A stretch of DNA of 64,000 nt. Origin: an uncultured virus (IMG/VR IMGVR_UViG_3300028840_001562). Taxonomy: Duplodnaviria; Heunggongvirae; Uroviricota; Caudoviricetes. A program made the position numbers and the translations under genes. The stretch is taken from IMG/VR virus record IMGVR_UViG_3300028840_001562; one strand, 5' to 3'. Positions 6,979 to 48,959 of the stretch are shown here, piece after piece. Under the pieces are notes generated by a model. That model worked only from the letters and a program-made list of their open reading frames with translations, was not told where the DNA came from and made no database searches. How positions within the stretch are numbered: position 1 is the stretch's first letter; the number at the start of each line of letters is the position of its first letter.

Positions 6979-6994
6979 TTTTTTTTGCTGTTAA

Positions 6995-7008: not shown

Positions 7009-7019
7009 GGGGTGTTGCT

Positions 7020-7970: not shown

Positions 7971-7987
7971 TATTACTGAGTAATAGT
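7971..7987 (+). promoter_or_regulatory. Operator copy 3 within a probable promoter
   Basis: TATTACTGAGTAATAGT exactly fills the 17 bp between TTGAGG and TACCTT. Confidence 0.7.
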
Positions 7988-7997
7988 TACCTTATGT

Positions 7998-11212: not shown

Positions 11213-11282
11213 GCGGAAATGTCTGAGGCTATATTTTTCAGCTTGATTGTAATGGCGAAACTTCAAGACAAAGAAACGGAGA

Positions 11283-13125: not shown

Positions 13126-13128
13126 GAG

Positions 13129-13453: not shown

Positions 13454-14059
13454 TTGATGGTATCTGTAGATCGTAACGAGTTGAAGTTAAGGTTATCTCC
13501 TGAGTTACCTCATGAGCAGTTAAAGTGGCGCAATGATGCTCGTATTTGGCGTTGGTGTCGTCAGAATCACATCATCACCAGGGCTCAGCAGATGGAGTGG
13601 TTGGATCGCATAGAGATGGATCCTGCGATACAGATGTTTGGTATTGACTCATCCAAAGCCGGGTTAGTTGGGACCTGTGGTTTAACGGGGATCAACACCT
13701 ATCATCGCACGGCTGAGTTTAGCCTATTTATAGGTCCTGAGTATCATGGCCATGGTTATTCACGCCCAAGCCTGGTCCTATTATTGGATTATGGGTTCAA
13801 CCGGATGAACCTGAAGTGCATCTACGGAGAGGTGATAGCTGGCAACCCAGCGTTAAGCCTATTCTTATCTGTTGGTTTCCGTGAGGAGGGTATTCATCAT
13901 TGTCGGTACTTCAAGCATGGCAAGTATCATGACGCAGTGAGCATCTCTATCACGGATGGTGAGTACAGGAAGAGGGGTATATATGAGACGGTATTTGATG
14001 ATTCTATTGATGCTGGTGATGGTTGGCATGTTATTCGGATGGTGGACAAGGACCGCTGA
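13454..14059 (+). CDS. GNAT N-acetyltransferase (PseH/RimJ-like)
   Basis: KWRND, VGTCGL, AEFSLFI, GHGY, YGF..MNL, GF..EG. Confidence 0.85.
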   Translation: MMVSVDRNELKLRLSPELPHEQLKWRNDARIWRWCRQNHIITRAQQMEWLDRIEMDPAIQMFGIDSSKAGLVGTCGLTGINTYHRTAEFSLFIGPEYHGHGYSRPSLVLLLDYGFNRMNLKCIYGEVIAGNPALSLFLSVGFREEGIHHCRYFKHGKYHDAVSISITDGEYRKRGIYETVFDDSIDAGDGWHVIRMVDKDR

Positions 14060-22366: not shown

Positions 22367-22891
22367 ATGACAACGCCTTATGGATATAGGGTTAGCTTTC
22401 GTGATTCCGTGTCGAGCGTAACTGCGACGATCCCTTCCGGTTATGCACTTGGCATGGAACGCATTGATGGTGGAACAACTTATCGTTATTGTTACAATGC
22501 TGGTAACTCCCAGATTGGGCCAGGTTACTGCTTCAAGACAGTAGGCGGCGGAAGTGGCCCCTACAGCATCACGATTTCGACAACAACCGAAGTCATTTCG
22601 GATACGCTTGGCGTCATTCCTGGTGCTCACAATACGGCCACAACCGGTACTTACTTCTGGGCAGCAACCAAGGGCGAGGTTGGGAAGCTGCTTGTGTCGA
22701 ACGTTTCCATTGCTACAGACGCAGCTATCGCTGTGGCTGCCAATGGCGCCTTGACCAAGCTGACATCCAACACCGCTGCAATCGGCATCAACCTTGGAAA
22801 CAGCAACGGAACAGGAGCAACCGACACACTTAGTGGCGACTTCTTGATCGACTGTGAGTCTCTCAAGTACGCCATGACAATCGAGGCATAA
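22367..22891 (+). CDS. Capsid decoration/cement-like protein, Ser/Thr-rich
   Basis: Follows the capsid gene; G..YRY and YFW...G motifs; about a quarter Ser+Thr. Confidence 0.65.
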   Translation: MTTPYGYRVSFRDSVSSVTATIPSGYALGMERIDGGTTYRYCYNAGNSQIGPGYCFKTVGGGSGPYSITISTTTEVISDTLGVIPGAHNTATTGTYFWAATKGEVGKLLVSNVSIATDAAIAVAANGALTKLTSNTAAIGINLGNSNGTGATDTLSGDFLIDCESLKYAMTIEA

Positions 22892-23958
22892 TGTCTAAGG
22901 AAATCCTTTCACTTGGCAGGGAGTACCAGCCACTTATTAGCAGGCCACCGCAGGCCGAGCAGGACATGTATCGACAAGCATGTTCTGCGGATGACATCAC
23001 GGTGAAGTCCTGGAAGCATACCTGGCTGGAGAACTACAGATCCATTCGGGATAAGTACGGTGGGTTCGAGAATGTGACTTATGGCAAGTTGCAAGGCAAG
23101 AACAGACACCGCCCTGCTATCGTTATCGGGGCCGGGCCATCTGTTGGTAGATCGCTGGAGGCATTGAAAGAGTCGGGAGATATTTTGAGCATTTCCTGTC
23201 TACATAACTATGCCTACTTCGAGGACAACGAGTGGCACCCTGATTACTACCTAACGCTTGATGCTGGCGCGGTGGTGATTGATGACATGGTGGAAGCCGG
23301 AACGAAGGAACGTGAACATTACTTCGAAACAACGAAGGACAAGCACCTCATTGCTTGTAGTTTCACGGATCCACGCTTGCTAGACTTGTGGCAGGGAGAG
23401 GTGAGCATTTTCAACTGCTTGATTCCCAATCTGGAGTTTCAGAAGGAATTGAACGCGATTGAACGCTTTTCCCACTACATCTCTAGCGGTGGCAACGCCC
23501 TTGGCGCTTCGATGTATACGGCCAAGGTAATCATGGGCTCAAACCCGATCATGTATGTTGGAGCTGACTTCTGTTTTTCCCATGACAAGAAGTTTCATAG
23601 CTGGGGCAGCAAGTACGACGATGTGGGCAACGCGATACGTTGTTTCGACGTGTTTGGTATGCCGCGTTATACTTGGCAGAGTTACTACAACTTCAAGATC
23701 TGGTTTGAGTACATTGCCTGCAAGGTTCCTGGTATTTGGATTAACTGTTCAGATGGCATCTTAGGTGCTTATCGTGACGGGAACATCAGCCAGTTCGTTT
23801 ACCAGGAACTAAAAGAAGCGCTTGTGCAGTATACGATGGCCGACGTTATTTACAGGCACAAGATCAACGATAAGGGCGAGAAAATAGAGGAAAAGACGTA
23901 CAAACTGAGCGACTATTTTTCTAACACCAAACATGAAGACGATCTGATATTGTTTTAG
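22891..23958 (+). CDS. maf: Maf/DUF115 (MptE-like fold) putative nonulosonate transferase
   Basis: AIVIGAGPS, HPDY..TLD, SGGNA, G.NPI.YVGADF.F motifs. Confidence 0.8.
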   Translation: MSKEILSLGREYQPLISRPPQAEQDMYRQACSADDITVKSWKHTWLENYRSIRDKYGGFENVTYGKLQGKNRHRPAIVIGAGPSVGRSLEALKESGDILSISCLHNYAYFEDNEWHPDYYLTLDAGAVVIDDMVEAGTKEREHYFETTKDKHLIACSFTDPRLLDLWQGEVSIFNCLIPNLEFQKELNAIERFSHYISSGGNALGASMYTAKVIMGSNPIMYVGADFCFSHDKKFHSWGSKYDDVGNAIRCFDVFGMPRYTWQSYYNFKIWFEYIACKVPGIWINCSDGILGAYRDGNISQFVYQELKEALVQYTMADVIYRHKINDKGEKIEEKTYKLSDYFSNTKHEDDLILF

Positions 23959-34222: not shown

Positions 34223-34539
34223 TGGCTGGCTTTCTGGCATTGTACGACCCGGGCACCTATCAACAGGTGTGGAGCGCTGCAATAGGAAGCCCATGGAACT
34301 GTAACGCAGTTTGTTGGGACGGCGAAATGTTTTGGATTGGAACGTCTTTTTACATCGGCGCATACAAAGTTGATGATGCTGGTGCTTTAAAAAACGTATA
34401 TTTCGTTTCGACTAGGATAGTTTATAACGCAATCCAAAACGTGAATGGAATTTGCACTGATGGCGATGCGCTATATATCGCTGTTGACGTTAGGGTTGGC
34501 ACCCCTCCCGGCGCCGAAACGCAAAACGTCTGCAGGTAA
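34222..34539 (+). CDS. N-terminal part of the propeller-like protein, frameshifted at the junction
   Basis: Continues correctly into bases 1-618; here it loses frame after 34512. Confidence 0.7.
   Translation: MAGFLALYDPGTYQQVWSAAIGSPWNCNAVCWDGEMFWIGTSFYIGAYKVDDAGALKNVYFVSTRIVYNAIQNVNGICTDGDALYIAVDVRVGTPPGAETQNVCR
34369..34512 (+). repeat. Exact direct repeat of bases 1-144, copy 2
   Basis: Identity checked base by base. Confidence 0.97.
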
Positions 34540-34958
34540 TTAACGGAACAGGCAAGGGGACAGCAAACAACCCTACAGAAAATTATCAGGACGTGACTTT
34601 TGATGGTCGCCAGCTAACGACGATGCGCGAACCAAATTTCGGTGGAACTCAATATATGTATGATTTCCACCTAAGCGGAGGGGCATCTCCGTTGAAATCG
34701 ACGGTATGTGGCACGACAAACTTTTTAAAGGCGATTGCTTGGAATGGGAAACATTTTTTTGTTGTTAGGGAGCGCAGTGGCGGGATGTTGGCAGATGTAT
34801 TTGATTTGATGGATCGTGATGGGAATCTTTTGAAATCGGGCGGCAACCTTAACTTTAAGTCAGTCACAGGATTAGACTTCGGGCAATTTGAGAACAACCG
34901 AAGGATGGGGCCGCTCGGTAGTCTCAATGGGAAGTACATAGTAACAGTTTACAATTAG
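34513..34958 (+). CDS. Phage B homolog of the propeller-like protein (5' truncated)
   Basis: Aligns to 179-618; ends GKYIVTVYN. Confidence 0.75.
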
Positions 34959-34966
34959 GGGTTGGC

Positions 34967-35164
34967 ATGGCCGAAAGAAAAAAGAAGTTATGGATTAGGG
35001 TTGAACGGGAAAAGGTTCTCGAGGTTTGCAAAGCCACATGGCCGGATCTTTTCGAAAATGTTCTTTGGAAAGACGTTCAATTTATGGGTGACGATCCAGA
35101 TGATTCATCTTGGTTTGTGTTCATAACAAACATTCAAGATGACGATTCTATTTTGCCACGTTGA
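34967..35164 (+). CDS. Small hypothetical protein
   Basis: Syntenic with 627-824. Confidence 0.65.
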   Translation: MAERKKKLWIRVEREKVLEVCKATWPDLFENVLWKDVQFMGDDPDDSSWFVFITNIQDDDSILPR

Positions 35165-35206
35165 TTATGCTATGATGCCGACACAGCACCCCAGAAGGGG
35201 GGAACA

Positions 35207-35536
35207 GTGTCTAAAAAAAGGGGGCTTAGGTCTCTGGAGCAATGGAACATAGATGCAAGGCTAGGAATTGTTGTTGAACCGGAACAGTCAAAACATTGTG
35301 CGCCAAATACTGGAATCGGGTGTCCAAAATGCGGCGCGCACCTTACTGATTTATCGGGACACGTCGTGTTACAGGTAGTAAAAAAACATCCGTTGATTTT
35401 AGAAGAAAAACAAATTGTTTATTGTGGCGTATGCGGTTTCGGCGGTTGCCGAGAAATTGCCAAGAATAGGATAAACAAAAGATGGGTGAACGGAAATGGT
35501 GGAAAGCGGCGGAACTTCAAATCGGGAACGGAATAA
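35207..35536 (+). CDS. Zinc-ribbon protein
   Basis: PNTGIGCPKCGAH shared with 843-1169. Confidence 0.75.
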   Translation: MSKKRGLRSLEQWNIDARLGIVVEPEQSKHCAPNTGIGCPKCGAHLTDLSGHVVLQVVKKHPLILEEKQIVYCGVCGFGGCREIAKNRINKRWVNGNGGKRRNFKSGTE

Positions 35537-35810
35537 CGATCAGGTGCCCGAGATTTTTAGGGTACGGCGTGACCAGGCTGTCAGTGCTGTCGCCCTACCT
35601 GTTGTTATCACTATCATTGGTGTGCTTATTGCTTTCGGTCATAATTTTTACACAGATAGGGACCAACGCATCCAAATTGTACGCAAAGACATCCAGCATT
35701 ACATTGACAGGGAAATTGACAGATTAGAGGAAAGGCAAAACAAACAATTTGATAGAATTGAAAGGCGAATAGTTTGGATTGAACAGGTTGTTTCAAAGAG
35801 TGAAAAATAA
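35496..35810 (+). CDS. Single-TM coiled-coil protein
   Basis: QVPEIFRVRRDQAVS shared with 1150-1479. Confidence 0.7.
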   Translation: MVESGGTSNRERNNDQVPEIFRVRRDQAVSAVALPVVITIIGVLIAFGHNFYTDRDQRIQIVRKDIQHYIDREIDRLEERQNKQFDRIERRIVWIEQVVSKSEK

Positions 35811-36265
35811 TGGAGCATTGGAACAAATATAAATATTTTAGGCCCTTTGACACGTCTGATAATTGGGGCGATCCACAAAAAATGAACCCAGATTTGTTGG
35901 TTAGGCTCGATTCGCTTCGAAAATTTATAGGCCATGCGTTGCATGTAACGAGCGCATACAGGCAAATGGATAAAAAGCAACACGGCCTTGGAAACGCGGT
36001 TGACATTATTTGTCCCGCCTTTGAAGATCCTAGCGATTTATTCGATTTATATTTGTGTGCCGAGCGTTTTAATTTTACTGGTATTGGAATTTATGTTCAT
36101 TGGGCATGGCAAGGCAAAACGGTCGGCGGTTTGCATGTTGATGTTCGTGAAATTGAAGATGGGTTCCCCAAAGGGTCAAGGTGGTTATCCTATAGAACAC
36201 CAGGAGGGACCCAGGAATATACGTCCTTGAATTGTGAAACCATTCGATCATTTGGGTTAGTTTAA
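35810..36265 (+). CDS. Peptidase M15-family endolysin
   Basis: M...L...LD.LR, VTSAYR, H..G.AVD, GIGIY, LHVDVR. Confidence 0.85.
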   Translation: MEHWNKYKYFRPFDTSDNWGDPQKMNPDLLVRLDSLRKFIGHALHVTSAYRQMDKKQHGLGNAVDIICPAFEDPSDLFDLYLCAERFNFTGIGIYVHWAWQGKTVGGLHVDVREIEDGFPKGSRWLSYRTPGGTQEYTSLNCETIRSFGLV

Positions 36266-36873
36266 TGCTTTATTTCGAAATAGGCGACACGACGGTCCCA
36301 ATTCTTTTGTTATTGCTTGACGGTGGAGTTGCACAAACCGGAAAAACCGTTGAGGCTGCCGTGTGGAACAAGCAAAGCAATACATTCCTTGATTTCGATG
36401 ATAATACATTCAAGTCGAGCGCTTGGGTCGAAAAGTGGAAAACGCTAACCGACATGAACGGGACCGACGCGGATTTGGCGGGGTTTTATCGATACATTTG
36501 GGATTCATCTTCGCCTATCACTGTGCAAGGCGAATATGCGTTTTTGTTTAAATGGAACGACGGCACAAATGGCATCATAACATTGGACGATGTTTATTTT
36601 GACGAATCAGAAAGCCCGGCCAATATTGCAGACGCGGTTTGGGATGAAACAGCTTCCGATCATGTTGCTGCAGGATCGACCGGGTTAGAGCTAAAAAAGG
36701 TTCGCGCCGCTTTGATCAATCGACAGGAGCTTGCAAACGGATCGAGTAGCAATTTTGTTACTTACGATGATGACAACACAACGCCGCTCATGACCCACGA
36801 TGTTGTTGACAAAGATGATGCTGCAGTATCGCAATCGACCGGTGTTCCAGCCAAGCGGAGCGCACCGTCATGA
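36265..36873 (+). CDS. Putative virion protein
   Basis: IADAVWDE...H...GSTG motif. Confidence 0.6.
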   Translation: MLYFEIGDTTVPILLLLLDGGVAQTGKTVEAAVWNKQSNTFLDFDDNTFKSSAWVEKWKTLTDMNGTDADLAGFYRYIWDSSSPITVQGEYAFLFKWNDGTNGIITLDDVYFDESESPANIADAVWDETASDHVAAGSTGLELKKVRAALINRQELANGSSSNFVTYDDDNTTPLMTHDVVDKDDAAVSQSTGVPAKRSAPS

Positions 36874-37769
36874 CGCTAGTTACTAGGGGCTTAGGTGGCG
36901 GAGCTGCAGGGGATATTTATCAATTTAATACGCCGATAACGGGGTTGATTTCTAACCCAGTGTTGGAGGGGGTGATCAATTTGAGCGACAAGACTGGATA
37001 TTTGTCTTTTACAACGCTGAAGGGGATCATTAGCGGCCAAATTACAGTTCCGCCATATTATTGGCCTCCGACCGGTGACGGTGCAACAGAGGTTTGGCGT
37101 GTTGGAGCTGCTTCTGGTGATTTTTATTCCGAAGTGCAAGAGGAACTTTATACAGAATTGGATGCTGACGATACATATTATGGCAGGCCAGGCCCAACTG
37201 GAACACAGGATGTTGAATCGACATTTTATGACAACGATGCAAGCGATAAAAGAAGCGGGCACGGAAAAAACACGGTTAGCTCGACATTGAAACCAGGCAC
37301 GGATGACTTTCAACTGTTCGTTGCATTTAAAAGCAAAAGCGGTGTTTTTTCTGCGTATCAAGAGCTTTTCATTTTAGTTGCTGATAGTTTGAATCTTGCA
37401 GACGGTGGTTTTCATTTTTGGAACACTTCCACAACTTGGTATTTGAGTGTTTTAGATTCTGCAGGGAATGAGCACAATACAACGTGGGCAAGCAGTGGTG
37501 CCGGGTGGGAAGATGATACTTGGTATTTTGTCCGATGGTATGCTGACAGGTCACTGACTAAGGCGCGGTTGTGGGTCGATGGTGTTGAAAAAACCACCGG
37601 TAAGCTCAACGATGATTTGAGTTCGTTGGGCACAATTAGCCCGTCAAACATCAATGTTCGCTTGGCTAGGAATTTCAACGAATCAAGCAGTTCTTTGCGG
37701 CTTCATGGCAACTTGTTTGCAGTGGCATACGCCAAAAATCTGACCTATATTTGGCCATATTGGAGCTAA
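36870..37769 (+). CDS. Putative virion protein with a LamG/ConA-like domain
   Basis: DDTWYFV...ARLWVDG motif. Confidence 0.55.
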   Translation: MTLVTRGLGGGAAGDIYQFNTPITGLISNPVLEGVINLSDKTGYLSFTTLKGIISGQITVPPYYWPPTGDGATEVWRVGAASGDFYSEVQEELYTELDADDTYYGRPGPTGTQDVESTFYDNDASDKRSGHGKNTVSSTLKPGTDDFQLFVAFKSKSGVFSAYQELFILVADSLNLADGGFHFWNTSTTWYLSVLDSAGNEHNTTWASSGAGWEDDTWYFVRWYADRSLTKARLWVDGVEKTTGKLNDDLSSLGTISPSNINVRLARNFNESSSSLRLHGNLFAVAYAKNLTYIWPYWS

Positions 37770-37779
37770 GGGGGTTAAA

Positions 37780-38133
37780 ATGTCGGCAAACCGAGATTTG
37801 GTATTTTTCAGCGGGGAACAAAAAACCATCACGGTCACCATCTATGACGAGGACGAGGCAACTGTTGACCTAACAGGGGGCACTGGTTGGTTTACGATCA
37901 AAGATAAAAGGTCGGACACAGACCCCGGAAAGATGCAAAAGACAATCACTGTCTTGAATCAGGTCACCTATCCGGGCCAATGCACGGTCGCCATCACCAC
38001 AAGCGATTGGACAAGTATTGACCCAGGCGAATATTACTATGATTTGAAAATCAAGCTTTCAAGTGGTGATATTTATTACCCTTTATATGGCCAAGTCACC
38101 GTGCGGGAAAACGTAACAACTAAAGACAGTTAG
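37780..38133 (+). CDS. BppU-like baseplate/virion protein
   Basis: VDLTG.T..F, GEYYYDL, G.VTV...VT. Confidence 0.65.
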   Translation: MSANRDLVFFSGEQKTITVTIYDEDEATVDLTGGTGWFTIKDKRSDTDPGKMQKTITVLNQVTYPGQCTVAITTSDWTSIDPGEYYYDLKIKLSSGDIYYPLYGQVTVRENVTTKDS

Positions 38134-38213
38134 AGGCTTTCGAGGTTGCCCTATGGCGGCCGATCCTCTCCCACCCTTTCCCACGGCACCCCACGCGGCG
38201 TGTGATTTTCAAG

Positions 38214-38242
38214 TTGACACGCTTCCCGTTTCTCGCTATCCT
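38214..38242 (+). promoter_or_regulatory. Sigma70-type promoter
   Basis: TTGACA-17 bp-TATCCT at the late/early boundary. Confidence 0.6.
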
Positions 38243-38541
38243 AAAAATAGGCAAAGGACATACCCCAAACATAGGAGAACCCCCAAAATGAAGATTTTTT
38301 CCAAAATGCTTCGCCATTGGAAGTGGAAACGTCGCGCCTTGACCAGGACGCAAGTTTTAAAACGCAAGGGTTTTTAGGGAGGGCGCGAAAATGACTTGGA
38401 ATCAATACAAAGAGATCAAACAACAGATGCAACACCCCATCGCAATCAATGTGCTTGATGCTAGTTTTCCAGAGCACAGCAGAAGGATGATTTTGAAAGT
38501 TGAGGGAAAAAAGGTTCGCCGTTCACGGAATGGGGGAAATC

Positions 38542-39039
38542 ATGATTAGGTTTTTAATTATCCCTTTGGTGCTTTTGGCAGCATGTGGGACGCCGTTCCC
38601 AGATATTCCTTTTTTAGAAACAGAAAATTACAGCCTGATGGTTGCCGGTGACAACCCAGAACTAGAGTTGAAACCGACTGAAGAGTTGTTTGATGCAGTT
38701 GTTGATTGGGCTAAACAATATCCAGAAGCGTTTGAAGATTATGATTTTCATTCGATCGCTGACAATTTAATGGTCGAATATTCATTCGAGGTTGTGCGTT
38801 GCAATGATGGAAATATTGTGGGCGGAGTTTTCAACCCTCCGAATCATATCAAAGTAAAGCATTACACCGGATCGCCGAGGCACGTTGCCCACGAATTGGT
38901 ACATTGGATGCTCTACCATGGCGGCAAAGTTACCTATAAGCACGTTGATGAAACAGATTATCTCTATGATGATATTGAAACGATAGGACGCCAACATATT
39001 AGGCGTGATGGTTGGTTTGATGATGTTTACGGAGGGTGA
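38542..39039 (+). CDS. Lipoprotein with an HExxH zinc-metallopeptidase motif
   Basis: LAAC lipobox; VAHELVH. Confidence 0.7.
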   Translation: MIRFLIIPLVLLAACGTPFPDIPFLETENYSLMVAGDNPELELKPTEELFDAVVDWAKQYPEAFEDYDFHSIADNLMVEYSFEVVRCNDGNIVGGVFNPPNHIKVKHYTGSPRHVAHELVHWMLYHGGKVTYKHVDETDYLYDDIETIGRQHIRRDGWFDDVYGG

Positions 39040-39228
39040 TGCAATGCAATGGTGGGGATTCAAAAAGACAAACGGCGAAATTTGCATCAAAGGTTACAAG
39101 AACAAAAAGCAAATTGAGCGCTCTCACCGCTCGAGGGTAATAGATGCAACCTATGGACCGATTGACGCTGAAAACTATTTCGTCGCAGCGGAAAAGATCG
39201 TTCCAGTTTTGCGTGAAGGCGTTTGATC

Positions 39229-39379
39229 TTGACTAGCGGCATGGTTTCTCATAGGGGTTTGAACATGGAGCTTTGGCAATCAACAAGTTTTAAAACATCG
39301 CGGCAACGGTCCTTTGCCAAAGCTCTCGTTTGCCGCACCGAGGCGGTCGTTACTCCTATGGCGGCCGCCTCAATTTTTT
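39229..39379 (+). ncRNA. Leader element 1: -35 box, pseudoknot-like pairings, terminator
   Basis: 39267-39279/39314-39326, 39300-39308/39327-39336, hairpin 39340-39371 with T run. Confidence 0.5.
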
Positions 39380-39525
39380 GACATCTTTTCCCGAAAGGGT
39401 TAAGCATGAAAAGTGACCCTTGCAAAATTCAAAAACAGATTGATTTCGATTCGGTAGACAATTCCACTGCAAGGGTCAGTTTGCCGGATCTGGGAGGGGT
39501 TGAGTCAAAAGCCGACCCCTCCCCA
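39378..39525 (+). ncRNA. Leader element 2 with the same architecture
   Basis: TTGACA at 39378; 39414-39424/39468-39478, 39448-39459/39479-39490, hairpin 39492-39523. Confidence 0.5.
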
Positions 39526-40209
39526 CTTGATTTAATGGAACGCGGATATTTCCCGCTTTGGCGGAAAGTGGTCGATTGGGAATGGGCGGATGATTCTATA
39601 GTTTTTTCGGCGTGGGTGAAAATTCTTATGTTAGCAAACTGGGAGCCAAGGAAGTGGCAGGGGATAACAATCAACCGAGGCCAATTCGTTTCAAGCAGAT
39701 CAAAATTAAGTAACTATTTGAAATTATCCGAACAACAAACACGCACTGTTGTCTCAAAACTTGAATCAACCGGGGAACTAACCAAGAAAGCAACCAAGCG
39801 TTTTTCGCTCTATACTATTGAAAATTATGACAAATATTTCCAGGCCGTTCGGACATCAACCAAGTTTGCAACCAACTACCAACCAACTACCAACCAACTA
39901 CCAACCACAACTAAAGAATTAAAAGAAAGAATAAAAAAGAAAGAAATATATAACGCTCATTTTCTGGAATGGTATTCGATTTACCCAAAGAAGATGGCCA
40001 AGGCAGAGGCACAACGAGCATTTAATGCTCTTCGTTTAAACAACGGAACATTCGAGGATTTATTGAACGGAACGAGGCGTTGGGCAGACCATTGGGCCGA
40101 TTCTGGCACAGATGCTCAATTTATCCCATATCCGTCGCGTTTTCTGCGCAGACGGCAATGGAATGACCGACCCGAAAAGGGTTGGAAGGACACTTTTTTG
40201 GAGGGATGA
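39406..40209 (+). CDS. Replication initiator / replisome organizer (conserved part starts near 39535)
   Basis: GYFPLWRK..DWEW, RGQFVSS, iteron-like ACCAAC tract (TNYQPTTNQLPTT), F.EWY..YPKK, FIPYP.RFL...W. Confidence 0.85.
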   Translation: MKSDPCKIQKQIDFDSVDNSTARVSLPDLGGVESKADPSPLDLMERGYFPLWRKVVDWEWADDSIVFSAWVKILMLANWEPRKWQGITINRGQFVSSRSKLSNYLKLSEQQTRTVVSKLESTGELTKKATKRFSLYTIENYDKYFQAVRTSTKFATNYQPTTNQLPTTTKELKERIKKKEIYNAHFLEWYSIYPKKMAKAEAQRAFNALRLNNGTFEDLLNGTRRWADHWADSGTDAQFIPYPSRFLRRRQWNDRPEKGWKDTFLEG

Positions 40210-40212
40210 AAA

Positions 40213-40764
40213 ATGGTTGAGCGAAGGCAATTTTTAGAAGCATGTGAAATCATGGCGGAAAACCTGCCCGTTGTGGGACCGGCAAAGCGAATGGACGGGC
40301 TATATAAGCTATTTAAGCATGAGCCGATCGACGCCATACAAAGGGCAGCCCGGTGGTGCGCCATGAATCTTGATAAATTCCCTGTGCCCCGCCAATTCGC
40401 AGACCAAATAGCGTTTGCAAAAAGGCAAACCGCAACACAGGAGGGGACACAGGTTGATCCATGCGAATACTGCCACGGGGACGGCGTTGTTTTCTGTATC
40501 AACACGGTCACAATGCACCGGTCATGCTTTCGTTGCCTGTGCGCCAATGCAGCCAAATTTCGTAACTACCCTGATTTTTTCGGCGCTGGCCTAAAAGATT
40601 GGGAGATCGAAAACACAATCGAACCCTCCGAATACCTGTCAGATAAGTTGTCGAAAGGATTGGCAATTTTAAAGCGGATGAAATTGAAAATTCCAGAAAA
40701 ATTAGAGAACAAAATCAACACCTTGGTAAAACTAGGCCGTGAGAGCGCCGACATTCCATTTTAA
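40213..40764 (+). CDS. Putative helicase loader/inhibitor-like protein with zinc finger
   Basis: Follows the initiator; KFP, CEYCHGDG, FRCLC. Confidence 0.6.
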   Translation: MVERRQFLEACEIMAENLPVVGPAKRMDGLYKLFKHEPIDAIQRAARWCAMNLDKFPVPRQFADQIAFAKRQTATQEGTQVDPCEYCHGDGVVFCINTVTMHRSCFRCLCANAAKFRNYPDFFGAGLKDWEIENTIEPSEYLSDKLSKGLAILKRMKLKIPEKLENKINTLVKLGRESADIPF

Positions 40765-41039
40765 CGGGTCGAGGGGGTGCGTGGTATGGATCAATCAAAG
40801 ATCGTTAACGTCGCAAGCACAGGTGAAGCCAGGGGGCACAGTTTTGAGTCAGATGCGGCCTCTGTGGACTTTTTCACGGACAAGTTTTCAAGACTGAATA
40901 ACTCTGAAGATCGTATCAGGTTTGTTGAAAACCTTGATCCGATCGAAATGCGTGATTTGCTTATATATTTGGCCGAATCCGACGATTGTATCAGCAATAG
41001 CGATTGGTTTCATGGTTGGATTGATATGCAGGGGGGTGA

Positions 41040-41261
41040 ATGATGCCGCTATGCAAGAACTGTCAACGGCGCATTTATTGGGTCGCCACAGAGACAAGGA
41101 AAACAATGCCGGTCGATCCTGAGATAATAACGGTCATATCAGAAAACGGCAGCATTGTTAGGGGAAGGGTTCCGCATTGGTTCACTTGTCCCAACATAGA
41201 ACAACACAAATTAGGAGGGCAAAAAAATGGAAGTCAAAAAAGGCATGATTGCATTGCATGA
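41040..41261 (+). CDS. Small zinc-binding phage protein
   Basis: CKNC..I.W..T....MPVD...HW.TCP. Confidence 0.7.
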   Translation: MMPLCKNCQRRIYWVATETRKTMPVDPEIITVISENGSIVRGRVPHWFTCPNIEQHKLGGQKNGSQKRHDCIA

Positions 41262-41481
41262 AGAGGCCACAGGCAACACCGTTTTTATACAGGCAAACAA
41301 TATTCAATCGGTTCGGTGTTGCTCAAAATTCAACCACCTTGAGCTGCAAGCATACAAAAACGACCCTGACCACATGCGGAGATTAATGCGTCACAACACG
41401 GAAATCAGATATGCCGGGGAAACCCTTTTTGTAACCGAATCAGTCGAAGATGTTTTTAAAATGCTTGCAATGGTAGTTTAA
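41227..41481 (+). CDS. Hypothetical protein
   Basis: SD aggagg; C-terminal VTES.EDV motif. Confidence 0.6.
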   Translation: MEVKKGMIALHEEATGNTVFIQANNIQSVRCCSKFNHLELQAYKNDPDHMRRLMRHNTEIRYAGETLFVTESVEDVFKMLAMVV

Positions 41482-41608
41482 AAATGCTTTGGTATCACAA
41501 GAAACAGAAAGGCCGCAGCGAGCGGGTCGCCACGGCCTTTCAACAAAAGAAGGTGCATCATCCAACCGTCAATGCCTTCTTATCATAACCCGTATGGGGA
41601 AGTCAAAG

Positions 41609-42700
41609 ATGAGCATTTTAAAGCCGGTCACTGATGAAGTTGCTTACGTCAAAATAAGCGGATTTGGTTTTGCAGGAACGGGCAAAACATGGACAAGCAG
41701 CTTGATCGCAGAGGGGTTGCACAAAAGAATCGGGAGCAAGAAGCCCATTGCATTTTTCGATTCTGAAGGCGGCCTTACATTCGTCAACAAAAAGATTTTT
41801 GAGCCGTCCAGCATCCCAGTTGTCGCTGTAAAAAGCAAATCGTTCGCAGACCTTATGCGCTTTATGAACGATGCGGAAAAGGAATGTGATATTGCAATCA
41901 TCGACAGCGTTACCCATGTTTGGGCCGACCTGCTCGAATCCTATAAGGCAAAAAAAGGACGCGATAGGCTATATATACCTGATTGGGGGATTTTAAAGCC
42001 TCAATGGTGGAAGTTTAGCGACAGAGTTGTGCGGTCAAAATTGCACCTGATTGTTTTGGGCCGTGCGGGTTACGAATATGAAACAAGCACAGACGAAGAA
42101 ACGGGGAAAAAAGAAAGTTACAGAAGCGGCACAAAGATGAAGGCCGAGGGAGACTTTTCTTTTGAACCAAGTTTGAATTTGGAGTTTGTGAAATTCAGAC
42201 CAACCGAAAAAGTGATGGTCAAAGACTATGGCGTTGGTGAGTATATAGCTAATAAAAAAATCGGTCTTCATGATTGGGTAAGAGTTTGCACCGTTCATAA
42301 AGACCGCTGGAACGAAATGGACGGCAAAAACATTGTAAAGCCAACATACAAAGATTTCGAGGCCCACATTGAAAATTACAATTTCGGCGGTGAGCACAAA
42401 CCCCTTGAACAGATCGAGGACAGCAAAGACCTTTTCAAAAATGAAGATGACGGGAGGCTCGAAAAGACAAGGCGCGAAATCTTACTCGAAAAGATTCAGG
42501 CCGAAATAATCTATATTTGCGGAGCAGGAACAGCGGGGAAAGTAAAAGAGGAAAAGATCAAATTGTTTGACAATGTTTTCGGCACAACAAGTTGGACCGA
42601 GGTTTGCGGATTTGAAACTGATCAACTTGAACGATCGCTTGACATACTATTTCACACTAGAAAGGCGAAGGATGCCCAGGAACAAAAAGAGGTAACATGA
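41609..42700 (+). CDS. AAA_24/Sak4-like recombination ATPase
   Basis: GFAGTGKT, FDSEGG, IIDSVTH.W. Confidence 0.85.
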   Translation: MSILKPVTDEVAYVKISGFGFAGTGKTWTSSLIAEGLHKRIGSKKPIAFFDSEGGLTFVNKKIFEPSSIPVVAVKSKSFADLMRFMNDAEKECDIAIIDSVTHVWADLLESYKAKKGRDRLYIPDWGILKPQWWKFSDRVVRSKLHLIVLGRAGYEYETSTDEETGKKESYRSGTKMKAEGDFSFEPSLNLEFVKFRPTEKVMVKDYGVGEYIANKKIGLHDWVRVCTVHKDRWNEMDGKNIVKPTYKDFEAHIENYNFGGEHKPLEQIEDSKDLFKNEDDGRLEKTRREILLEKIQAEIIYICGAGTAGKVKEEKIKLFDNVFGTTSWTEVCGFETDQLERSLDILFHTRKAKDAQEQKEVT

Positions 42701-43144
42701 TATGGGGAATGAGAAGGGACAAGGAGAATTCATGCCAGAGCTTATGCACTATAGATGCAGCACGGCAATGAAACGTAAAATAAACGAATATTGTGAACGC
42801 AATGACATCACTGTTGCCCAGTTCGGCAGATGGTCCGACAGGTATTTTATCGACAAATTTCCAAAAACACCGCCCGTTATCACGGAGGAAGATGCAGATG
42901 GAACAAGCTAAACCTGAATTGAACAGGCAATATAAGTTTGTGATTTTGCCACATATTTGCATAAGCGGATACTGGTCTCAAAGAATCAAGGACAATATCA
43001 ACGAGGAAATGGATTGGTTGCGCAATGACATAATTCAAGCAATTAAAGGGGCTGTCGGCGCAATAAACGCTGGAGTGGCAAACGACACCATGACAATCAC
43101 AAATGTTGTTGTTGATGCGTCGGCAAGCTTCCAGGGGCCTGGCG

Positions 43145-43450
43145 ATGATGCTTCAAAAACTAAATGACATAAATCCAGTTACCCTAGATCCAAAGCTTGA
43201 TGCTGAAAGACTAGGGAAACAGATTGATCGCGTGCGAGATTACATGCTTGATGGAAGATGGCACACCCTTGAAGAGATTAGTTTGCACACTGGAGCGCCA
43301 CCCGCTTCAGCATCGGCAAGGTTGAGGGATCTAAGAAAGCCAAAATTTGGGTGCTACTTCGTTGAAAGAAGGCGTGCCGGACATCCAAAAGCAGGCATTT
43401 GGGAATATAGAATAGGAAATAGGGGCGAACAACTTGTGTTTTTGTCATAA
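43145..43450 (+). CDS. Winged-helix DNA-binding protein
   Basis: M.DG.W.TLEEI...SARLRDLRK...WEYR. Confidence 0.75.
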   Translation: MMLQKLNDINPVTLDPKLDAERLGKQIDRVRDYMLDGRWHTLEEISLHTGAPPASASARLRDLRKPKFGCYFVERRRAGHPKAGIWEYRIGNRGEQLVFLS

Positions 43451-44069
43451 AAATGGCGGCCGCAGCGAAAACCTTAACAACGCTGGTATGGGTGGATCAA
43501 CAGCAAGCTGCGTGGATGGAGTTTGAAGGGTGCGATGCTCTAGCAATGCGTACTGGCCAATCATTGCCAAAAAACCGCACCTGCCGCCTATTTTGGATTT
43601 TAGCGCTTACGATGTTCATGTTCGGATGAAAAAGAAAGGGGAACACAATGGAACTAGAATTGAAAGAGGAAATTTGCCGCAACATCTTGATGAAACATGC
43701 GAAAAAGGCAATGGGGCTTGGAGCAAAAGACAAGGTGGGCATGATTTGGGTTATGCAGGGAGAAACGATCGAAAAGGCAAAAATACACCTAATTGAAAAC
43801 GATGAAGATCCGAGACAAATGAAGATAGGCGAAGATGAATAAACAGAAAATGGGAAAGATTCTTCAGTTTCCAAGGATAGAAACTAAAGAGCTTACCCTT
43901 GATCAGATCATGAAAGAGCTTGATATGGTTGTTGTAAAAACAAAAGAGTTGTTTGAGGCGTCGGAGCAGACAAAAGCTGAAGCTGAACGCTTGTTACATA
44001 CAGCAAAAGCCATTTCAGCGTTTTCAATAACTGGCTGGGCAATTCTAATCATTTTGATGGTGCTTTGAG

Positions 44070-44894
44070 ATGAAAATCAAAGTTCATACTGATTGGAAAA
44101 TTCACGGGGAAACAGTGCGATCTGCTCTCGGGTCGAATTTGGTTGAATCATTTGACAACGCAGATGCCGCCATTTTCTTCCCTGCAACACCACAACACAA
44201 AGAAACAGTTGAATGGTGCAAGCAAAGGGGAATCATAACAGCGGTATATTGGATGGGTCAGGAAGCAAAAAAGGCTGTAATTAACAAAATATGGCGCGAC
44301 AAATTGCCAAAGTATGATTTGCAATTTTGCGTTCATGAGCGCCTGAAATTGGAGCTTGATACAGTGGACCTTTTCGCTTCTACAATCTATTTTTTCCCGA
44401 AGCAGATCCCATCTTATGCAAACGCACCTATGATGCCGATGGTAGCCGCCTATCTTCCTAATTTGCCAAATTACATGCCGGAAACTGTTACGTTGATTGC
44501 TGACAAAGTTCCTGACATTAAATTTTTAATCTATGGGAACAAGGAACCATACAAAAACTTGCCAGGAAATTGTGAACAGCATGGTTGGGTGACTCCCGAA
44601 AAAGCAAGCGAAATTCTGAAAATGTCAACTTGTGTTTTGAGGGTAACAGCGCATGACGGATTCCCTCAAAATGTCATTGAAATGAAAATGAGGGACCGAC
44701 ACGCGGTCACAAATTATTTTTATCAGGGCTGTTTGCATGGAAAAACGATCGAAGATTTTGTTCAAATTCTGAAAGACAAAAAAACACACCTGCCCGACGT
44801 TTCATTTTGGCCGATGTGGTACAGGGCGCACTGTTCTCCTGAAACATTCAGAAAACGGGTTGTTGCGAAATTCACAGGGAAAATGGGCAAATAA
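44070..44894 (+). CDS. Putative GT-B fold glycosyltransferase
   Basis: PDIKF.IYG, HGWV, LR.T.HDGFP.NVIE. Confidence 0.65.
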   Translation: MKIKVHTDWKIHGETVRSALGSNLVESFDNADAAIFFPATPQHKETVEWCKQRGIITAVYWMGQEAKKAVINKIWRDKLPKYDLQFCVHERLKLELDTVDLFASTIYFFPKQIPSYANAPMMPMVAAYLPNLPNYMPETVTLIADKVPDIKFLIYGNKEPYKNLPGNCEQHGWVTPEKASEILKMSTCVLRVTAHDGFPQNVIEMKMRDRHAVTNYFYQGCLHGKTIEDFVQILKDKKTHLPDVSFWPMWYRAHCSPETFRKRVVAKFTGKMGK

Positions 44895-44895
44895 A

Positions 44896-45927
44896 ATGGA
44901 AAAATTGACGGTTTGTCACGTTAGGTCGCATAGGGGGCCAAGGGAAACAAAGCTTGCATACTGCCAGAAAAAAAACGGCAAGGTTACACCTCTTTGGATA
45001 GGTCTTGCCGGGAATGAATACCAAACAACAATGCCTTTTGAGCGTGCCATTGAACCGCCCCCAGGGCAAAAGGGGCTGTTTCTAAAAAAAGCCGTGGAAA
45101 TAATTAACAAAAGCGTTGATGTGTATCATGTTCACAATGAGCCGGATTGGCTAATTACCGCAATGAAGGAATTGACATCGAAACCAGTGGTTTGGGATGT
45201 TCACGACCTAAACAGCTTGCGAACAGGAATCACAAGAGAAGATGAAAGGCTTGCTTTTGAACTTGCCGACGGGATTTTGACAGTCAACCAAGAATTGGCC
45301 GCCATCATAAGAAGCAAAACCGAAAGAGATATTCCAATCGGCCAATATCCAAGCTATTGCCCAATGGATTGGATGCCGCCACCAATACAAGAGCCAAACG
45401 GGCCGGACATCATTATCGCAACAGGATTAAACCCGCTTGCTGGCCATTACAGAAATTGGTTTAGCTGTTTCGATGAGATCCTAGACAGCGGGTTTACATT
45501 AGTGTGTTATTCGGGCGCAATTAAAGATTATCATAACCTTTTTCGATATAGGTATGAAATAAAAGAGCCGATCGACATAATAGAGCTTTTGGGAGCATAT
45601 TCTAATGCTCATTATGGTTTGGCGGGGGCTCCAAATCATAACCCGTTAATGTCGCTCGCGACACCTAACAAGCCTTTCGAATACATAGCCGCTGGAATCC
45701 CAGTAATTGTTTTTGGTAGGCACCACAAAATGTTGGAAACTTTCGAGCGGTTAGAGATCGGCATAGGCATAGATTACATGAGCGAATTACCCGATGCCAT
45801 CGAACACGCAAAACGCACCAAAATGCGCGAAAGCGTGATCCAAAACAGAACCTTGTTCACCATGGATAGGCACGAACCGCTTGTTTTCGATTTTTATGGC
45901 GATGTGCTCGATAGGGAAAAAACATAA
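44896..45927 (+). CDS. GT4-family glycosyltransferase
   Basis: DVYHVHNEPD, KPVVWDVHD, PNK.FEYIAAGIPVI. Confidence 0.85.
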   Translation: MEKLTVCHVRSHRGPRETKLAYCQKKNGKVTPLWIGLAGNEYQTTMPFERAIEPPPGQKGLFLKKAVEIINKSVDVYHVHNEPDWLITAMKELTSKPVVWDVHDLNSLRTGITREDERLAFELADGILTVNQELAAIIRSKTERDIPIGQYPSYCPMDWMPPPIQEPNGPDIIIATGLNPLAGHYRNWFSCFDEILDSGFTLVCYSGAIKDYHNLFRYRYEIKEPIDIIELLGAYSNAHYGLAGAPNHNPLMSLATPNKPFEYIAAGIPVIVFGRHHKMLETFERLEIGIGIDYMSELPDAIEHAKRTKMRESVIQNRTLFTMDRHEPLVFDFYGDVLDREKT

Positions 45928-45929
45928 AT

Positions 45930-45964
45930 GGTTCTTGCGTTTGACTCCATTTTTCGCAAGGACC
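45930..45964 (+). ncRNA. Hairpin with the same 15-nt loop as 2901-2933
   Basis: GGTTCTTGCG-TTTGACTCCATTTTT-CGCAAGGACC. Confidence 0.55.
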
Positions 45965-46084
45965 ACGCGCCGCGAATGGGTTGCCAACGTGGTGCAATGG
46001 GGCGGTCGGGGGCGCGGGCGCGGTCGGGATCGGGTTAAACCAAACAGCCGAATCCTTTAATAAGAGAAGGCGTTATTAAAGACG

Positions 46085-46315
46085 ATGAACCCAACAGCCA
46101 AAGTTGAGATCGTTGTTACAGTGACAAAGAGATGCACAAACCAATTTATAGGGACCATACAAGACAATGGCAGGTCTTTCCGAGATGTTGGAACATGCAG
46201 GTCCGACGCTGTTCAACGCGCAATAAAGAAATGGGCATCAACTATAGACGCATCAGAAGAATGGGCAAAACGATGGGTTAACAGCCAGCTAACTGTGAAA
46301 GTTGGAACTACATGA
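46085..46315 (+). CDS. Homolog of 6405-6668
   Basis: MNPxAKVEIVV...SDAVQxAIKKWASTIDA. Confidence 0.75.
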   Translation: MNPTAKVEIVVTVTKRCTNQFIGTIQDNGRSFRDVGTCRSDAVQRAIKKWASTIDASEEWAKRWVNSQLTVKVGTT

Positions 46316-46486
46316 AAGAAGCTATTCGCAGATATGTTAATATCATGGACGATCGTATTGCCCACGGCAGATACAACAAGATCGTGCGAAAACACTATGG
46401 GGTGCAGAGCAGACAGATCGCGGCCCTTATGGACATACTAATTGATCTGAAAGTATTGCCGAAAGATCCACCGGAAAGCTTGTTGA

Positions 46487-46996
46487 ATGACAAAAGCGAT
46501 TGCAAAGAAGGTTAGGACTAGCGGGAAAGGGCTTGTCGGCAGACCGACAAAGTTCACGTTTGACAGGATCAGGCGTTACTTAGAAGCGTGCAGAGCTGGT
46601 TATTCTGTCTCGACTTGCATAGCAAAAGCTGGATGGAAAGAAACATCTTTGCGTAAGTATAGGGAAAATGCGCGATTTTCGCGAATGGAAACAAAGGCGC
46701 GTCAAAAGGGTCAGTCCGTTCTTTGTGAAATGGCCATTGATGCTGTGAAAATGTCACTTCAGAGGGGTTACTGGCCAGCAGCGGAAGGCGTATTGACTCG
46801 TTTTGATCCTGCTTGGAAACAGGAGCCCCAATACATGGGCGACACAACGAATGTTTTACAGTTTATCATAAACAATGCGGTTCAAGCCGATTCGTCGAAC
46901 ACGAGGGTAATAAGGGAAGTTGTCGGTGAAGCAACGCATGAGGGTGAAGGCGATCAACAAGAAATCGAAAGTTCCAATGATCAGCTTGAAGAATAA
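46487..46996 (+). CDS. terS: Putative terminase small subunit
   Basis: GRPTKFT HTH start, W.AA...L.R motif, upstream of terL. Confidence 0.65.
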   Translation: MTKAIAKKVRTSGKGLVGRPTKFTFDRIRRYLEACRAGYSVSTCIAKAGWKETSLRKYRENARFSRMETKARQKGQSVLCEMAIDAVKMSLQRGYWPAAEGVLTRFDPAWKQEPQYMGDTTNVLQFIINNAVQADSSNTRVIREVVGEATHEGEGDQQEIESSNDQLEE

Positions 46997-47172
46997 TTGG
47001 GCAAAATTTAAAGAAATTTTGAACAAATTCAAAATAGACAAAAGAGATATATTTGCGCCACATGAACACAGAACGGCAGAAATAGCGGAGCTTATTTTTT
47101 CCAGTTTGATTTTGTTGAAAATGTGCCAATCCGATGAAGAGGAAAACGGACCTATTGTAAATGGTGATAACG

Positions 47173-47526
47173 ATGGCAAAAGTTAAACTATTCAACGAAA
47201 AAAACAGACTCAAAAAAGCAAAATGCCCAGAATGTGGCAAAAGAAGCACTGTCAATGATTGGGGTAATAATGATTACGAATTAAGAGGGTGCGACCTGTG
47301 CGGATCTCACGCAGCTTATAAATGCCCGAAATGCGCGAAGTTAATAGATGGAATTAATTTTATTCCAGAAGATGAGGCCGTTAAATGTAAAGCGTGCCTT
47401 GATACAGGCGTAACTTTGCCAACCCAGGCACCAGAAACGCCAGACTGTGACGGTAATTATTGGGATGGTGGCGGTTATCGGTGCGATTGTGGTCAAAAAC
47501 CCACAAGACCGCTTGAGTATGAATGA
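47173..47526 (+). CDS. Cys-rich zinc-finger protein
   Basis: Several CxxC pairs. Confidence 0.6.
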   Translation: MAKVKLFNEKNRLKKAKCPECGKRSTVNDWGNNDYELRGCDLCGSHAAYKCPKCAKLIDGINFIPEDEAVKCKACLDTGVTLPTQAPETPDCDGNYWDGGGYRCDCGQKPTRPLEYE

Positions 47527-48959
47527 AACTAGATGTTAAAAAGAGTTACCGGCCCGCTAAAAAGCTTGCCAATCATGTTCGGTCGAATTGGTACAACGAC
47601 CCCGTTGGGTTCGGTCAGAAGATTTTAAGAGTCAAGGAATTCCACGAAAAGCCACAACTGCTTGGCTTGCGGGAGATGGCAAGCACAAACGATGTGCTCA
47701 TGCGAACCGGGCACGGTGTAGGCAAGTCATTCACGCTTGCCGCTGCAATCCTTTGGTTTTTCTGGACTAGGCCATTTTGTCGTATACCAATTATCGGGCC
47801 GTCATGGTCGCAGTTGAAGCGTTTCCTGTGGGCTGAAATTGATAAAATGTGGTTGCGCTTGCCGAAGGAATTCCAAGCCGCAGCGCACAAGACAAAGCAG
47901 CAAAGCTTTTACATGAAGGGGCCGGGGAAATCTGCCCATTACGAACCATGGAAAAATCTGTGGTGCTCGTTTACTTTTTCAGCAAACACAGACCCGGACT
48001 TGCTCGAGGGTTTGCATGCTGGCCGCGTGTTTATCGTGATCGACGAGGCCAAGGCCGTGAAAAAGGAAGCGTTTGATGCGATCGAGGGTCAAATCACAGA
48101 AAAGGGCATCTACCAAAAGGTGATGGCATCAACCCCTGGAGATCCAACCGGGGAGTTCTACGACGCAAACACAAAGCACGCTGATAGATGGAACATCATT
48201 CACGCGACGCAATATGATTCTCCTATGATCAACCCACAGACCATAGAGGACAAAAAGAAGAGGTGGGGCGAAAGTTCCCCTATATTTATTTCTAAGGTGT
48301 TGGGCAATTTTGCCCCCGGGGGGATTGACCGCATTTTCACGCTCACCGCATTGGAAAATGCAATGGGGAAGATGCCAGCTATTGAGGGAGACAGGTGGCT
48401 TGGCGTTGACGTGGCTCGTTTTGGCAATGATATGACGGCGTTTGTCATTTATCAGGGCGGCCAGGTATTGCATTATGAACAGTATGGAGGGCGTGATCTG
48501 ATGCACACGGCCGGGCGCATCACGGATTTTGTCAGAAAAGGCGAAATCGAGGGCGTGTGCATTGATGACCGAGGTTTGGGCGGGGGCGTAACGGACCGGC
48601 TACGCGAAACCCTGCCCGCCTCGGTCGAAATGGTGCCAATAACAGGTGAGGAGCGGGCACAGGATGAGGAGCACTATGCTAACTGGCAGACCGAGCTGCT
48701 TTTCGACATTCAGGATAAAATGAACACCGGCGAATTGAGATTGGGCAACTTTGAAGAGTTAAGAGCACAGCTTTCAACAATACCCTATGAGTTTACAAGC
48801 GCAGGACAATTCAAGATGCCAAGCAGGCCCAAGTTTCACTTGCCAGACGGTGGTGCAGCTCTGTCTTATGCGCATTACGGAGCAAGCGTTGCACACGGTT
48901 CAAGCCTATCTGCATTCGATGATTTGAACCGGGCAGCAGTGATTCCTTCGCAGTGGTAA
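47523..48959 (+). CDS. terL: Terminase large subunit
   Basis: TGHGVGKS, VIDEA, STP, GVDVARFG.D, IDD.GLGGGV.D. Confidence 0.93.
   Translation: MKLDVKKSYRPAKKLANHVRSNWYNDPVGFGQKILRVKEFHEKPQLLGLREMASTNDVLMRTGHGVGKSFTLAAAILWFFWTRPFCRIPIIGPSWSQLKRFLWAEIDKMWLRLPKEFQAAAHKTKQQSFYMKGPGKSAHYEPWKNLWCSFTFSANTDPDLLEGLHAGRVFIVIDEAKAVKKEAFDAIEGQITEKGIYQKVMASTPGDPTGEFYDANTKHADRWNIIHATQYDSPMINPQTIEDKKKRWGESSPIFISKVLGNFAPGGIDRIFTLTALENAMGKMPAIEGDRWLGVDVARFGNDMTAFVIYQGGQVLHYEQYGGRDLMHTAGRITDFVRKGEIEGVCIDDRGLGGGVTDRLRETLPASVEMVPITGEERAQDEEHYANWQTELLFDIQDKMNTGELRLGNFEELRAQLSTIPYEFTSAGQFKMPSRPKFHLPDGGAALSYAHYGASVAHGSSLSAFDDLNRAAVIPSQW

Follow-up and report, generated by a model that had tools for sequence, protein, structure and literature searches.

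The two tandem RNA structures located in front of the replication initiator gene of an uncultured tailed phage belong to a genuine family of leader RNAs that has not been catalogued and that appears to act in the manner of a leader-ORF attenuator. Each unit consists of a promoter-like site, a start codon, a long stem (P1), a second stem (P2) that crosses P1 in a putative pseudoknot and a terminator-like hairpin, and single counterparts were found in two further phages (L118 and L463). The original prediction, made from the letters of the DNA, of an RNA family that controls termination or translation of replication genes is supported as the most likely reading, since the homologs covary and Rfam holds no match. 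For the mode of action, we assign a probability of roughly 0.45 to each unit being a translation-gated attenuator in the early operon, directly before the replication initiator, that acts on read-through mRNA; this mechanism is drawn from four units in three phages, with weak −10 boxes in the window (the whole stretch of 64,000 nt that was analysed) and a weak U-tract in unit 2.

Two phages are fused in the window (parts 1-34485 and 34513-64000), with a 123-bp repeat at the junction. Bases 22-34485 are identical to a complete record of 34,464 bp (G001), and read depth is about 14 for the left phage and about 35 on the right side. Both units reside in the right-hand phage (phage B), within an unbroken contig piece (37801-41775, two sequencing runs), and the region of the element is identical in another assembly of the same phage (L381). 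All phage B genes are on the + strand, in the order lysis and accessory genes, the early promoter P0, three small genes, the two units, the DnaD-like initiator, a zinc-finger gene, a Sak4-like gene and then terminase, portal, capsid and tail genes (Table 1). P0 is the likely source of a long read-through mRNA, and a simple script scan found no terminator-like site between P0 and unit 1; a strong upstream promoter not followed by a terminator-like site before the unit was present in 3/3 phages (the window phage, L118 and L463). From their sequence, the three direct repeats inside the initiator gene are likely the origin iterons, and weak leads suggest that the zinc-finger gene may be loader-like.

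The left and right phages have several modules in common, including lysis genes (1-619 with 34369-34959, and 6375-6571 with 46055-46251), and given these shared modules they probably infect the same host group. A homolog of the post-initiator zinc-finger gene of the right phage, L118 and L463 is located at 7020-7562 of the left phage, and neither an initiator of the phrog_2514-type family nor a promoter-pseudoknot-terminator unit was seen before it. The left phage also carries a repeated motif, TATTACTGAGTA, in promoter-like positions (2504-2517, 6994-7011 and 7971-7990), twice followed by ATAGT, which is possibly an operator or a phage promoter. Sugar-modifying or glycosyltransferase-like genes were noticed by eye in the ORF list of both phages (8935-14059, 22891-23958 and 44070-45927).

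Table 1 Features of the early region of phage B, in window coordinates
Feature	Position	Strand	Details
Upstream early promoter P0	38214..38242	+	TTGACA-17-TATCCT; best + strand promoter of 34500-48000
Small gene	39044..39226	+	Stop codon ends 3 nt before the unit 1 −35
Unit 1 inner promoter-like site	39229..39258	+	−35 TTGACT at 39229, weak −10
Unit 1 leader ORF	39265..39381	+	38 codons, ATG 39265; runs across P1, P2 and terminator
Unit 1 P1	39268-79 / 39314-25	+	12 Watson-Crick pairs
Unit 1 P2	39300-06 / 39330-36	+	Crosses P1; 7 pairs, plus 3 pairs over a one-base bulge (39300-09 / 39326-36)
Unit 1 intrinsic terminator	39340..39379	+	13-bp hairpin (39340-71) and T6; in terminator list
Unit 2 inner promoter-like site	39378..39407	+	−35 TTGACA at 39378, weak −10
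Unit 2 open frame	39406..39534	+	43 codons, fused to initiator; counterparts of 46 (L118) and 47 codons (L463)
Alternative short frame	39413..39457	+	GTG at predicted start, TAG stop inside P2; function doubtful
Unit 2 P1	39414-24 / 39468-78	+	11 pairs
Unit 2 P2	39448-59 / 39479-90	+	Crosses P1; 12 pairs, exactly 3 of them G-U
Unit 2 terminator-like hairpin	39492..39533	+	Hairpin 39492-39523, weak U-tract
Replication initiator core	39535..40209	+	DnaD-like / replisome organizer; phrog_2514, E 1.9e-24, from profile position 2
Three direct repeats	39869..39907	+	11-nt spacing, inside initiator gene; likely iterons
Zinc-finger gene	40213..40764	+	Rare; after initiator; clade marker common to L118 and L463

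Most of the anatomy given in the original prediction was recovered. The two −35 elements are in place, but each −10 box agrees with the consensus at just 2-3 of 6 positions and a consensus promoter scan lists neither inner promoter of the window units. Likewise, the claim of two terminators stands for unit 1 and only in part for unit 2, whose hairpin has just CTTGATTT behind it and is absent from the terminator list. The 3′ strand of P2 was said to follow P1 directly; this is so in unit 2, while in unit 1 the core of that strand begins 3-4 nt after P1. The shared sequence GTTTGCCG is indeed found in the P2 3′ strands of both units, and the three non-Watson-Crick positions of P2 in unit 2 are all G-U pairs, in a stem that is longer than had been implied. 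The 38-codon ORF of unit 1 exists as described, its stop codon overlapping the −35 of unit 2, and the unit 2 frame does read into the initiator, as it also does in L118 and L463. The weak −10 of unit 1 doubles as an SD-like AGGGG (39253-57), and the promoter-like site of unit 2 holds both the ATG at 39406 and an SD-like AAGGG (39395-99), the latter in a small CCC-GAAA-GGG hairpin. Two 13-nt repeats of unit 1 sequences (terminator 3′ side and loop L1) lie in the intergenic stretch around P0, at 38150-38162 and 38351-38363; they are possibly a decayed third copy, or due to chance.

The predicted layout of TTGAC(T/A), ATG, long P1, crossing P2 and hairpin is far from what random sequence yields. 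Fold z-scores were −4.1 and −3.8 for the two units, and P1, P2 and hairpin occurred together in 0 of 23,204 dinucleotide shuffles of 39229-39540, with P1 and P2 alone in 30. The layout was found nowhere else on either strand of the window, and a strict structure descriptor run over 2.06 Mb (462 loci) matched only unit 1, unit 2, L118 and L463; as it was tuned on these four, this result measures specificity rather than independent discovery. The P1 sequences had been called unrelated, which is wrong: 8/10 pairs are identical between the units and the other 2 show two-sided changes, with one pair removed by hand choice. By hand alignment, 1 of the 7 P2 pairs is changed on both sides and 2 on one side, and the terminators have 7/9 pairs in common. 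Judged from these sequence comparisons, unit 1 and unit 2 are diverged duplicates.

The units of L118 and L463, which are phages related to one another, are single and lie directly before the initiator. They consist of TTGAC-16-TATGAT, a P1 of 11-12 bp at the predicted start, a P2 of 9 bp right behind P1 and a 12-bp UUCG terminator with a U-tract, followed by GGAGG and the initiator start. Between them, 12 two-sided pair changes were counted over the three helices (4/12 in P1, 3/9 in P2 and 5/12 in the terminator) against 2 broken pairs, although the L463 P2 needs a 2-nt register shift and in plain MAFFT columns 7/9 P2 pairs fail. The length differences sum to 3 nt, and L2 is identical (8/8), whereas the P2 5′ strand is the least conserved element (1/9 in the column register). 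A covariance model, the check proposed in the original prediction, was built from L118 and L463 and misses unit 1 and unit 2, and MAFFT gave no structural alignment of the four units. The kinship of the window units with L118 and L463 therefore rests on position, shared neighbour genes, helix and loop lengths and short motifs, namely the TCAA that opens L1 and a CGG/CCG core shared by the P2 stems. Across the units, TCAA opening L1, CGG/CCG in P2 and CC in L2 are invariant, P1 starts at the predicted transcription start in 4/4 units, 34-38 nt after TTGAC, and the spacings are 4-9 nt from P2 5′ to P1 3′ and 0-3 nt from P1 3′ to P2 3′.

The family is rare in the searched set, with 3 phages among about 200 initiator loci and a marker-gene scan. 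Scanning for the structure in front of 132 relatives of the initiator turned up 2 matches, L118 and the looser L163; a further such scan gave 1/71, the L381 assembly of the window phage; and a relaxed one gave 3/197 (L118, L381 and L043, the last without promoter) with 0/197 in the antisense control. L463 was reached via the rare post-initiator marker gene (2/98 stretches). BLAST of the element against phages and against plasmids gave no match. DNA-pattern scans of viral contigs produced 3 matches, none of them structured, and none in 29 loci; another, with a pattern blind to L118, produced at least 115 stretches, of which 88 distinct ones were examined without finding the full layout, and one with 80 loci (73 distinct) recovered only L118. 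One chance pattern match drew attention to an unrelated conserved repeat in a viral contig (L016, 601-619 and 823-841, two copies 222 nt apart).

A looser relative precedes the initiator in L163 (1044-1200), where a promoter is followed by a 13-bp P1 and a crossing P2 of 14 bp, L2 contains an additional hairpin and a clear terminator is missing; it is a long-loop relative in geometry and unrelated in sequence. The protein P0150 may be of this type, as the DNA for its 41-aa extension could form these crossing helices, the loop being longer as in L163 (0/150 shuffles, an indirect measure). For P0049 and P0061, a P1 in the extension was not supported (139 and 10 of 150 shuffles, respectively).

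The reading frames would fit a role of translation. An SD-like site and an ATG lie 2-12 nt before P1 in 4/4 units, with anti-SD duplex scores of −6.4 (unit 1), −4.5 (unit 2), −4.0 (L118) and −8.5 (L463), those of unit 2 and L118 being weak. From this ATG the frame is open through knot and hairpin in 4/4 units, closing in the U-tract of unit 1, 25 nt before the unit 2 ATG, and it is fused to the initiator in 3/3 gene-adjacent units (unit 2, L118 and L463). The odds of this are modest: composition-matched shuffles kept the three fused frames open with chances of 0.22, 0.22 and 0.43, which amounts to about 0.02-0.09 before the ATG phase is considered, L118 and L463 being related. Open frames of 43 or more codons precede 4/196 initiator loci; two are these phages, and the others are L090, a gene overlap, and L102.

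The inner initiator ATG at 39535 has no SD (anti-SD duplex +0.6), unlike most neighbouring early genes, and it marks the N-terminus of the initiator family: 144 of the other 149 matches listed align within their first 30 residues, so the family is generally without extension. Since the ATG at 39406 lies inside the −10 of unit 2 itself, it is usable only on transcripts from further upstream. The TATGAT −10 box of L118 and L463 supplies this ATG by itself, and the inner start has a good SD in both, so that neither phage needs the extension. In two proteins closely related to the L118 initiator the extension stays open with 7 changes, 4 of them unpaired and 3 pair-keeping (codons hand-mapped on L118), and for P0205 changes number 6/45 in the extension versus 11/249 in the core.

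A second frame opens at the predicted start in the four units (ATG, GTG, ACG-ATG and ATG) and has an aligned TAG/TAA stop just before the terminator in L118 and L463, an arrangement broken in unit 2, where the 39413 frame resumes later and its stop codon overlaps the inner initiator ATG as TAATG. It shows no codon-position bias (12/12/12). As a competing reading, this frame could do the same gating job on the short transcript. Amber recoding past the TAG at 39455 was rejected, as TAG closes 6 of 40 listed frames and the window holds no tRNA, and no slippery heptamer was seen by eye before P1.

From these features we propose the following mechanism. On long mRNA from the upstream promoter, a ribosome would load at the SD-ATG 5′ of P1 only until P1 closes. 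Once loaded, it would trail RNA polymerase through P1, P2 and terminator, so that the terminator is passed and expression of the replication genes follows; in unit 2 that ribosome would continue into the initiator, yielding a form of 267 aa. If P1 closes first, P2 would lock it, the start would be buried, the terminator would form and the operon would be off. Transcripts from the inner promoter, which overlaps the SD-ATG, would begin at P1 without SD and either end at the terminator as a compact RNA of ~110 nt or leak to the downstream SD (L118 and L463). Duplication of the unit in the window phage would place two such gates in series.

Several observations are consistent with this scheme. Opening the start region was calculated to cost 7-9 kcal/mol on short nascent RNA and 11-22 kcal/mol with P1 complete, a rise that would set the race; the scheme also presumes that something tips this race. 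Each long transcript is expected to carry the SD-ATG, because the unit comes right behind a stop codon in an operon whose strong promoter lies further upstream, no terminator-like site intervening. For RNA from the inner promoter that start is out of reach, and termination is expected. All three helices (P1, P2 and terminator) can form together, and neither stem competes with the terminator. The candidate antiterminator helix between the P2 3′ strand and the terminator 5′ side was rejected, as 264-545 of 1000 shuffles gave a switch helix as stable. Something other than refolding must thus stop termination, and a translating ribosome would be the simplest candidate. A 10-nt complement between the 5′ end of the P0 transcript (38250) and L2/P1 of unit 1 was discarded as well, its count being within the null and the match not being repeated at that site in L118 or L463.

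RNA control of replication initiators is textbook knowledge for plasmids and P4; to our knowledge, it is little described for ordinary tailed phages with DnaD-like initiators. The element offers a compact (~110 nt), covariation-backed and testable switch in which a start codon is laid over a promoter −10 box, and its topology is unusual, with two long crossing helices and no linker between P1 3′ and P2 3′. If the translation-gated model is right, replication in phages of uncultured hosts would be linked to host translation capacity, and initiators annotated with odd N-terminal extensions of 40 aa would flag such leaders.

The closest functional parallel is the pyrBI (pyrL) attenuator, in which an intrinsic terminator is entered or crossed by a leader ORF whose sequence is unconstrained, and no alternative antiterminator is needed. 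Here, too, the leader ORF covers the terminator and the peptide sequence appears unconstrained, as judged from the open frames and the P0205 changes. It differs from pyrL in that the start codon would be gated by a pseudoknot and overlaps a second promoter, the ORF is fused to the regulated gene, and phage replication rather than biosynthesis would be controlled. The pyrL leader has nucleotide-sensitive pause tracts; L1 of the units has short T runs only.

A search of Rfam with Infernal, as the original prediction had suggested, retrieved no already-described family: there were 0 matches at gathering score in the window, only 2 hairpin-level matches (E 2-3) in 39000-39700 and, at E 1, no match in the leaders of L118 and L463. 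A literature search found no description of this leader element. IsrK, P4 seqA-CI and P1 c4 are alike in being phage leaders that carry their own promoter, an intrinsic terminator and an upstream ORF, occur in a short and a read-through form and control replication or early genes, as described in PMC4825925 and PMC3632133; a c4 listing is part of PMC2864571. The analogy with P1 c4 and P4 CI immunity, by which unit 1 had been suggested to act in trans, does not extend to membership of that group. The element has no match, even at E 10, to the respective Rfam models (C4, c4-a1b1, c4-2 and IsrK); it has no tRNA-like processed RNA and is built on two long crossing helices; matches of 10 or more nt are at chance level, leaving no flanking complementary target pair of that length; and instead of an icd/kil-antirepressor operon the initiator is directly next in 3/3 phages.

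In the rep leaders of IncI1 and IncB plasmids, a pseudoknot activates rep translation and a countertranscript blocks it, according to the accounts in PMC8053102 and PMC10724649; the likeness lies in a pseudoknot and a translated leader controlling the initiator, where the pairing sequence could define the type. In contrast to these, 3/3 phages have a terminator hairpin placed between P2 3′ and the start of the initiator, so P2 3′ does not abut the SD, and the main leader frame is fused to the initiator. As to a separate leader peptide coupled to rep, the unit 1 ORF stops 25 nt short of the ATG at 39406, and the frame with the TAATG overlap is interrupted by a TAG. Weak opposite-strand promoter sites (9 of 12) are present in the window (39620/39622) and in L118 and absent from L463; a conserved antisense promoter was not found. 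DNAVirus_4859 (Fremin et al. 2023, PMC10690425 supplement), an RNA of 106 nt from aquatic phages found <=25 bp from HTH_36 / Phage_rep_O genes, is similar in length and gene context and is listed in that supplement without terminator; the comparison is by description only. Type III antitoxin arrays (ToxI/TenpI/CptI) are near-identical tandem pseudoknot repeats under one promoter, followed by a toxin gene, whereas here each unit has its own promoter site and terminator, the units are diverged, the initiator is next and Rfam gives no match. HDV-like and theta ribozymes contain nested P3/L3, P1.1 and P4 between P2 5′ and P2 3′, for which the spacings in our units leave no room, and they gave no Rfam match either.

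Other readings assign the same structures a different role. The short terminated RNA might be the main product and target, in trans, leaders that are being transcribed from its own phage or from a superinfecting one; P2 would serve as a type-specific code, as in IsrK- or CI-like immunity or incompatibility, and unit 1 as an extra regulator for unit 2. P1 at the predicted start in all four units is the layout of a stable small RNA, the P2 5′ strand changes fastest between L118 and L463 next to an invariant L2, and the L463 P2 does not cross-pair with the others (−4 to −5.5 versus −15 kcal/mol in cis), while the P2 stems of unit 1 and unit 2 keep a shared core and cross-pair at −9.6 and −10.0 kcal/mol; IsrK, acting on its own read-through mRNA, and P4 CI, both described in PMC4825925, would be precedents. 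We nevertheless consider this unlikely: the mature fold engages the two P2 strands with each other in cis, the P2 of L118, from another genome, cross-pairs with the two window units as well as these do with each other, and L118 and L463 have one unit only. Moreover, phage B complements of 10 or more nt number 7 and 4 (null means 2.5 and 2.7, maxima 11 and 7), the L118 and L463 contigs contain no complementary target above chance, and neither a repressor nor an integrase was seen in the phage B part of the window. A combination, in which one stretch serves as ribosome-gated attenuator and also gives an untranslatable small RNA from the promoter over the start codon, pairing in trans via the fast-changing P2 code, is a speculative proposal to which we give rather little credence. 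If true, it would provide RNA-only copy-number or superinfection control of the initiator in tailed phages without visible repressor, and the duplication would give two cross-reacting gates.

The invariant loop letters, including the L2 preserved between L118 and L463, suggest a recognised shape, so the pseudoknot might instead bind a protein or small molecule (e.g. for initiator feedback, or a host factor) and control termination or translation in cis, the frames being incidental; T4 gp32 binds a pseudoknot in its own leader, as stated in PMC10690425. This is doubtful, given that the missing SD at 39535 would go unexplained and that, with no switch helix above chance and all three helices compatible, binding has no obvious lever. 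Its size of ~75 nt, early-promoter position, two copies per phage and location ahead of the replication genes liken the P1/P2 fold to HK022 put (about 70 nt, two copies, PMC9378689); as a put-like element, the fold would bind RNA polymerase and make it pass adjacent and later terminators. Put is described in that source as two successive stems with a triplex, no pseudoknot and no adjacent terminator, whereas the element's helices cross. HK022 put binds the β′ zinc-binding domain. An antiterminator that is always active would bring no control when placed next to its own terminator, and the frames would have no explanation, which makes this reading improbable. Still harder to accept is that the pseudoknot never forms, with P1 and P2 either replacing each other as hairpins in a simple switch or being remnants without function. 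Folding does give P2 alone as a hairpin when its 5′ end is blocked, and by our own reasoning 9-12 bp in a loop of 34-43 nt, with a linker of 4-9 nt spanning P1, are sterically demanding; but covariation of both helices excludes a lack of function, and neither competes with the terminator.

Besides the units described here, initiator leaders appear to host several RNA architectures. Other structured leaders were observed upstream of the initiator in L093, L104, L110, L147, L170, L179 and L382, with a 5′ segment or first-hairpin loop complementary to the terminator loop, and with c4-like hairpins. In L463, the minus strand upstream of the replication module carries a tRNA-Met and a Y-RNA-like/tRNA-like segment (713-784 and 1099-1166), the Y-RNA-like segment scoring 34.7 bits with the YrlA model, below gathering.
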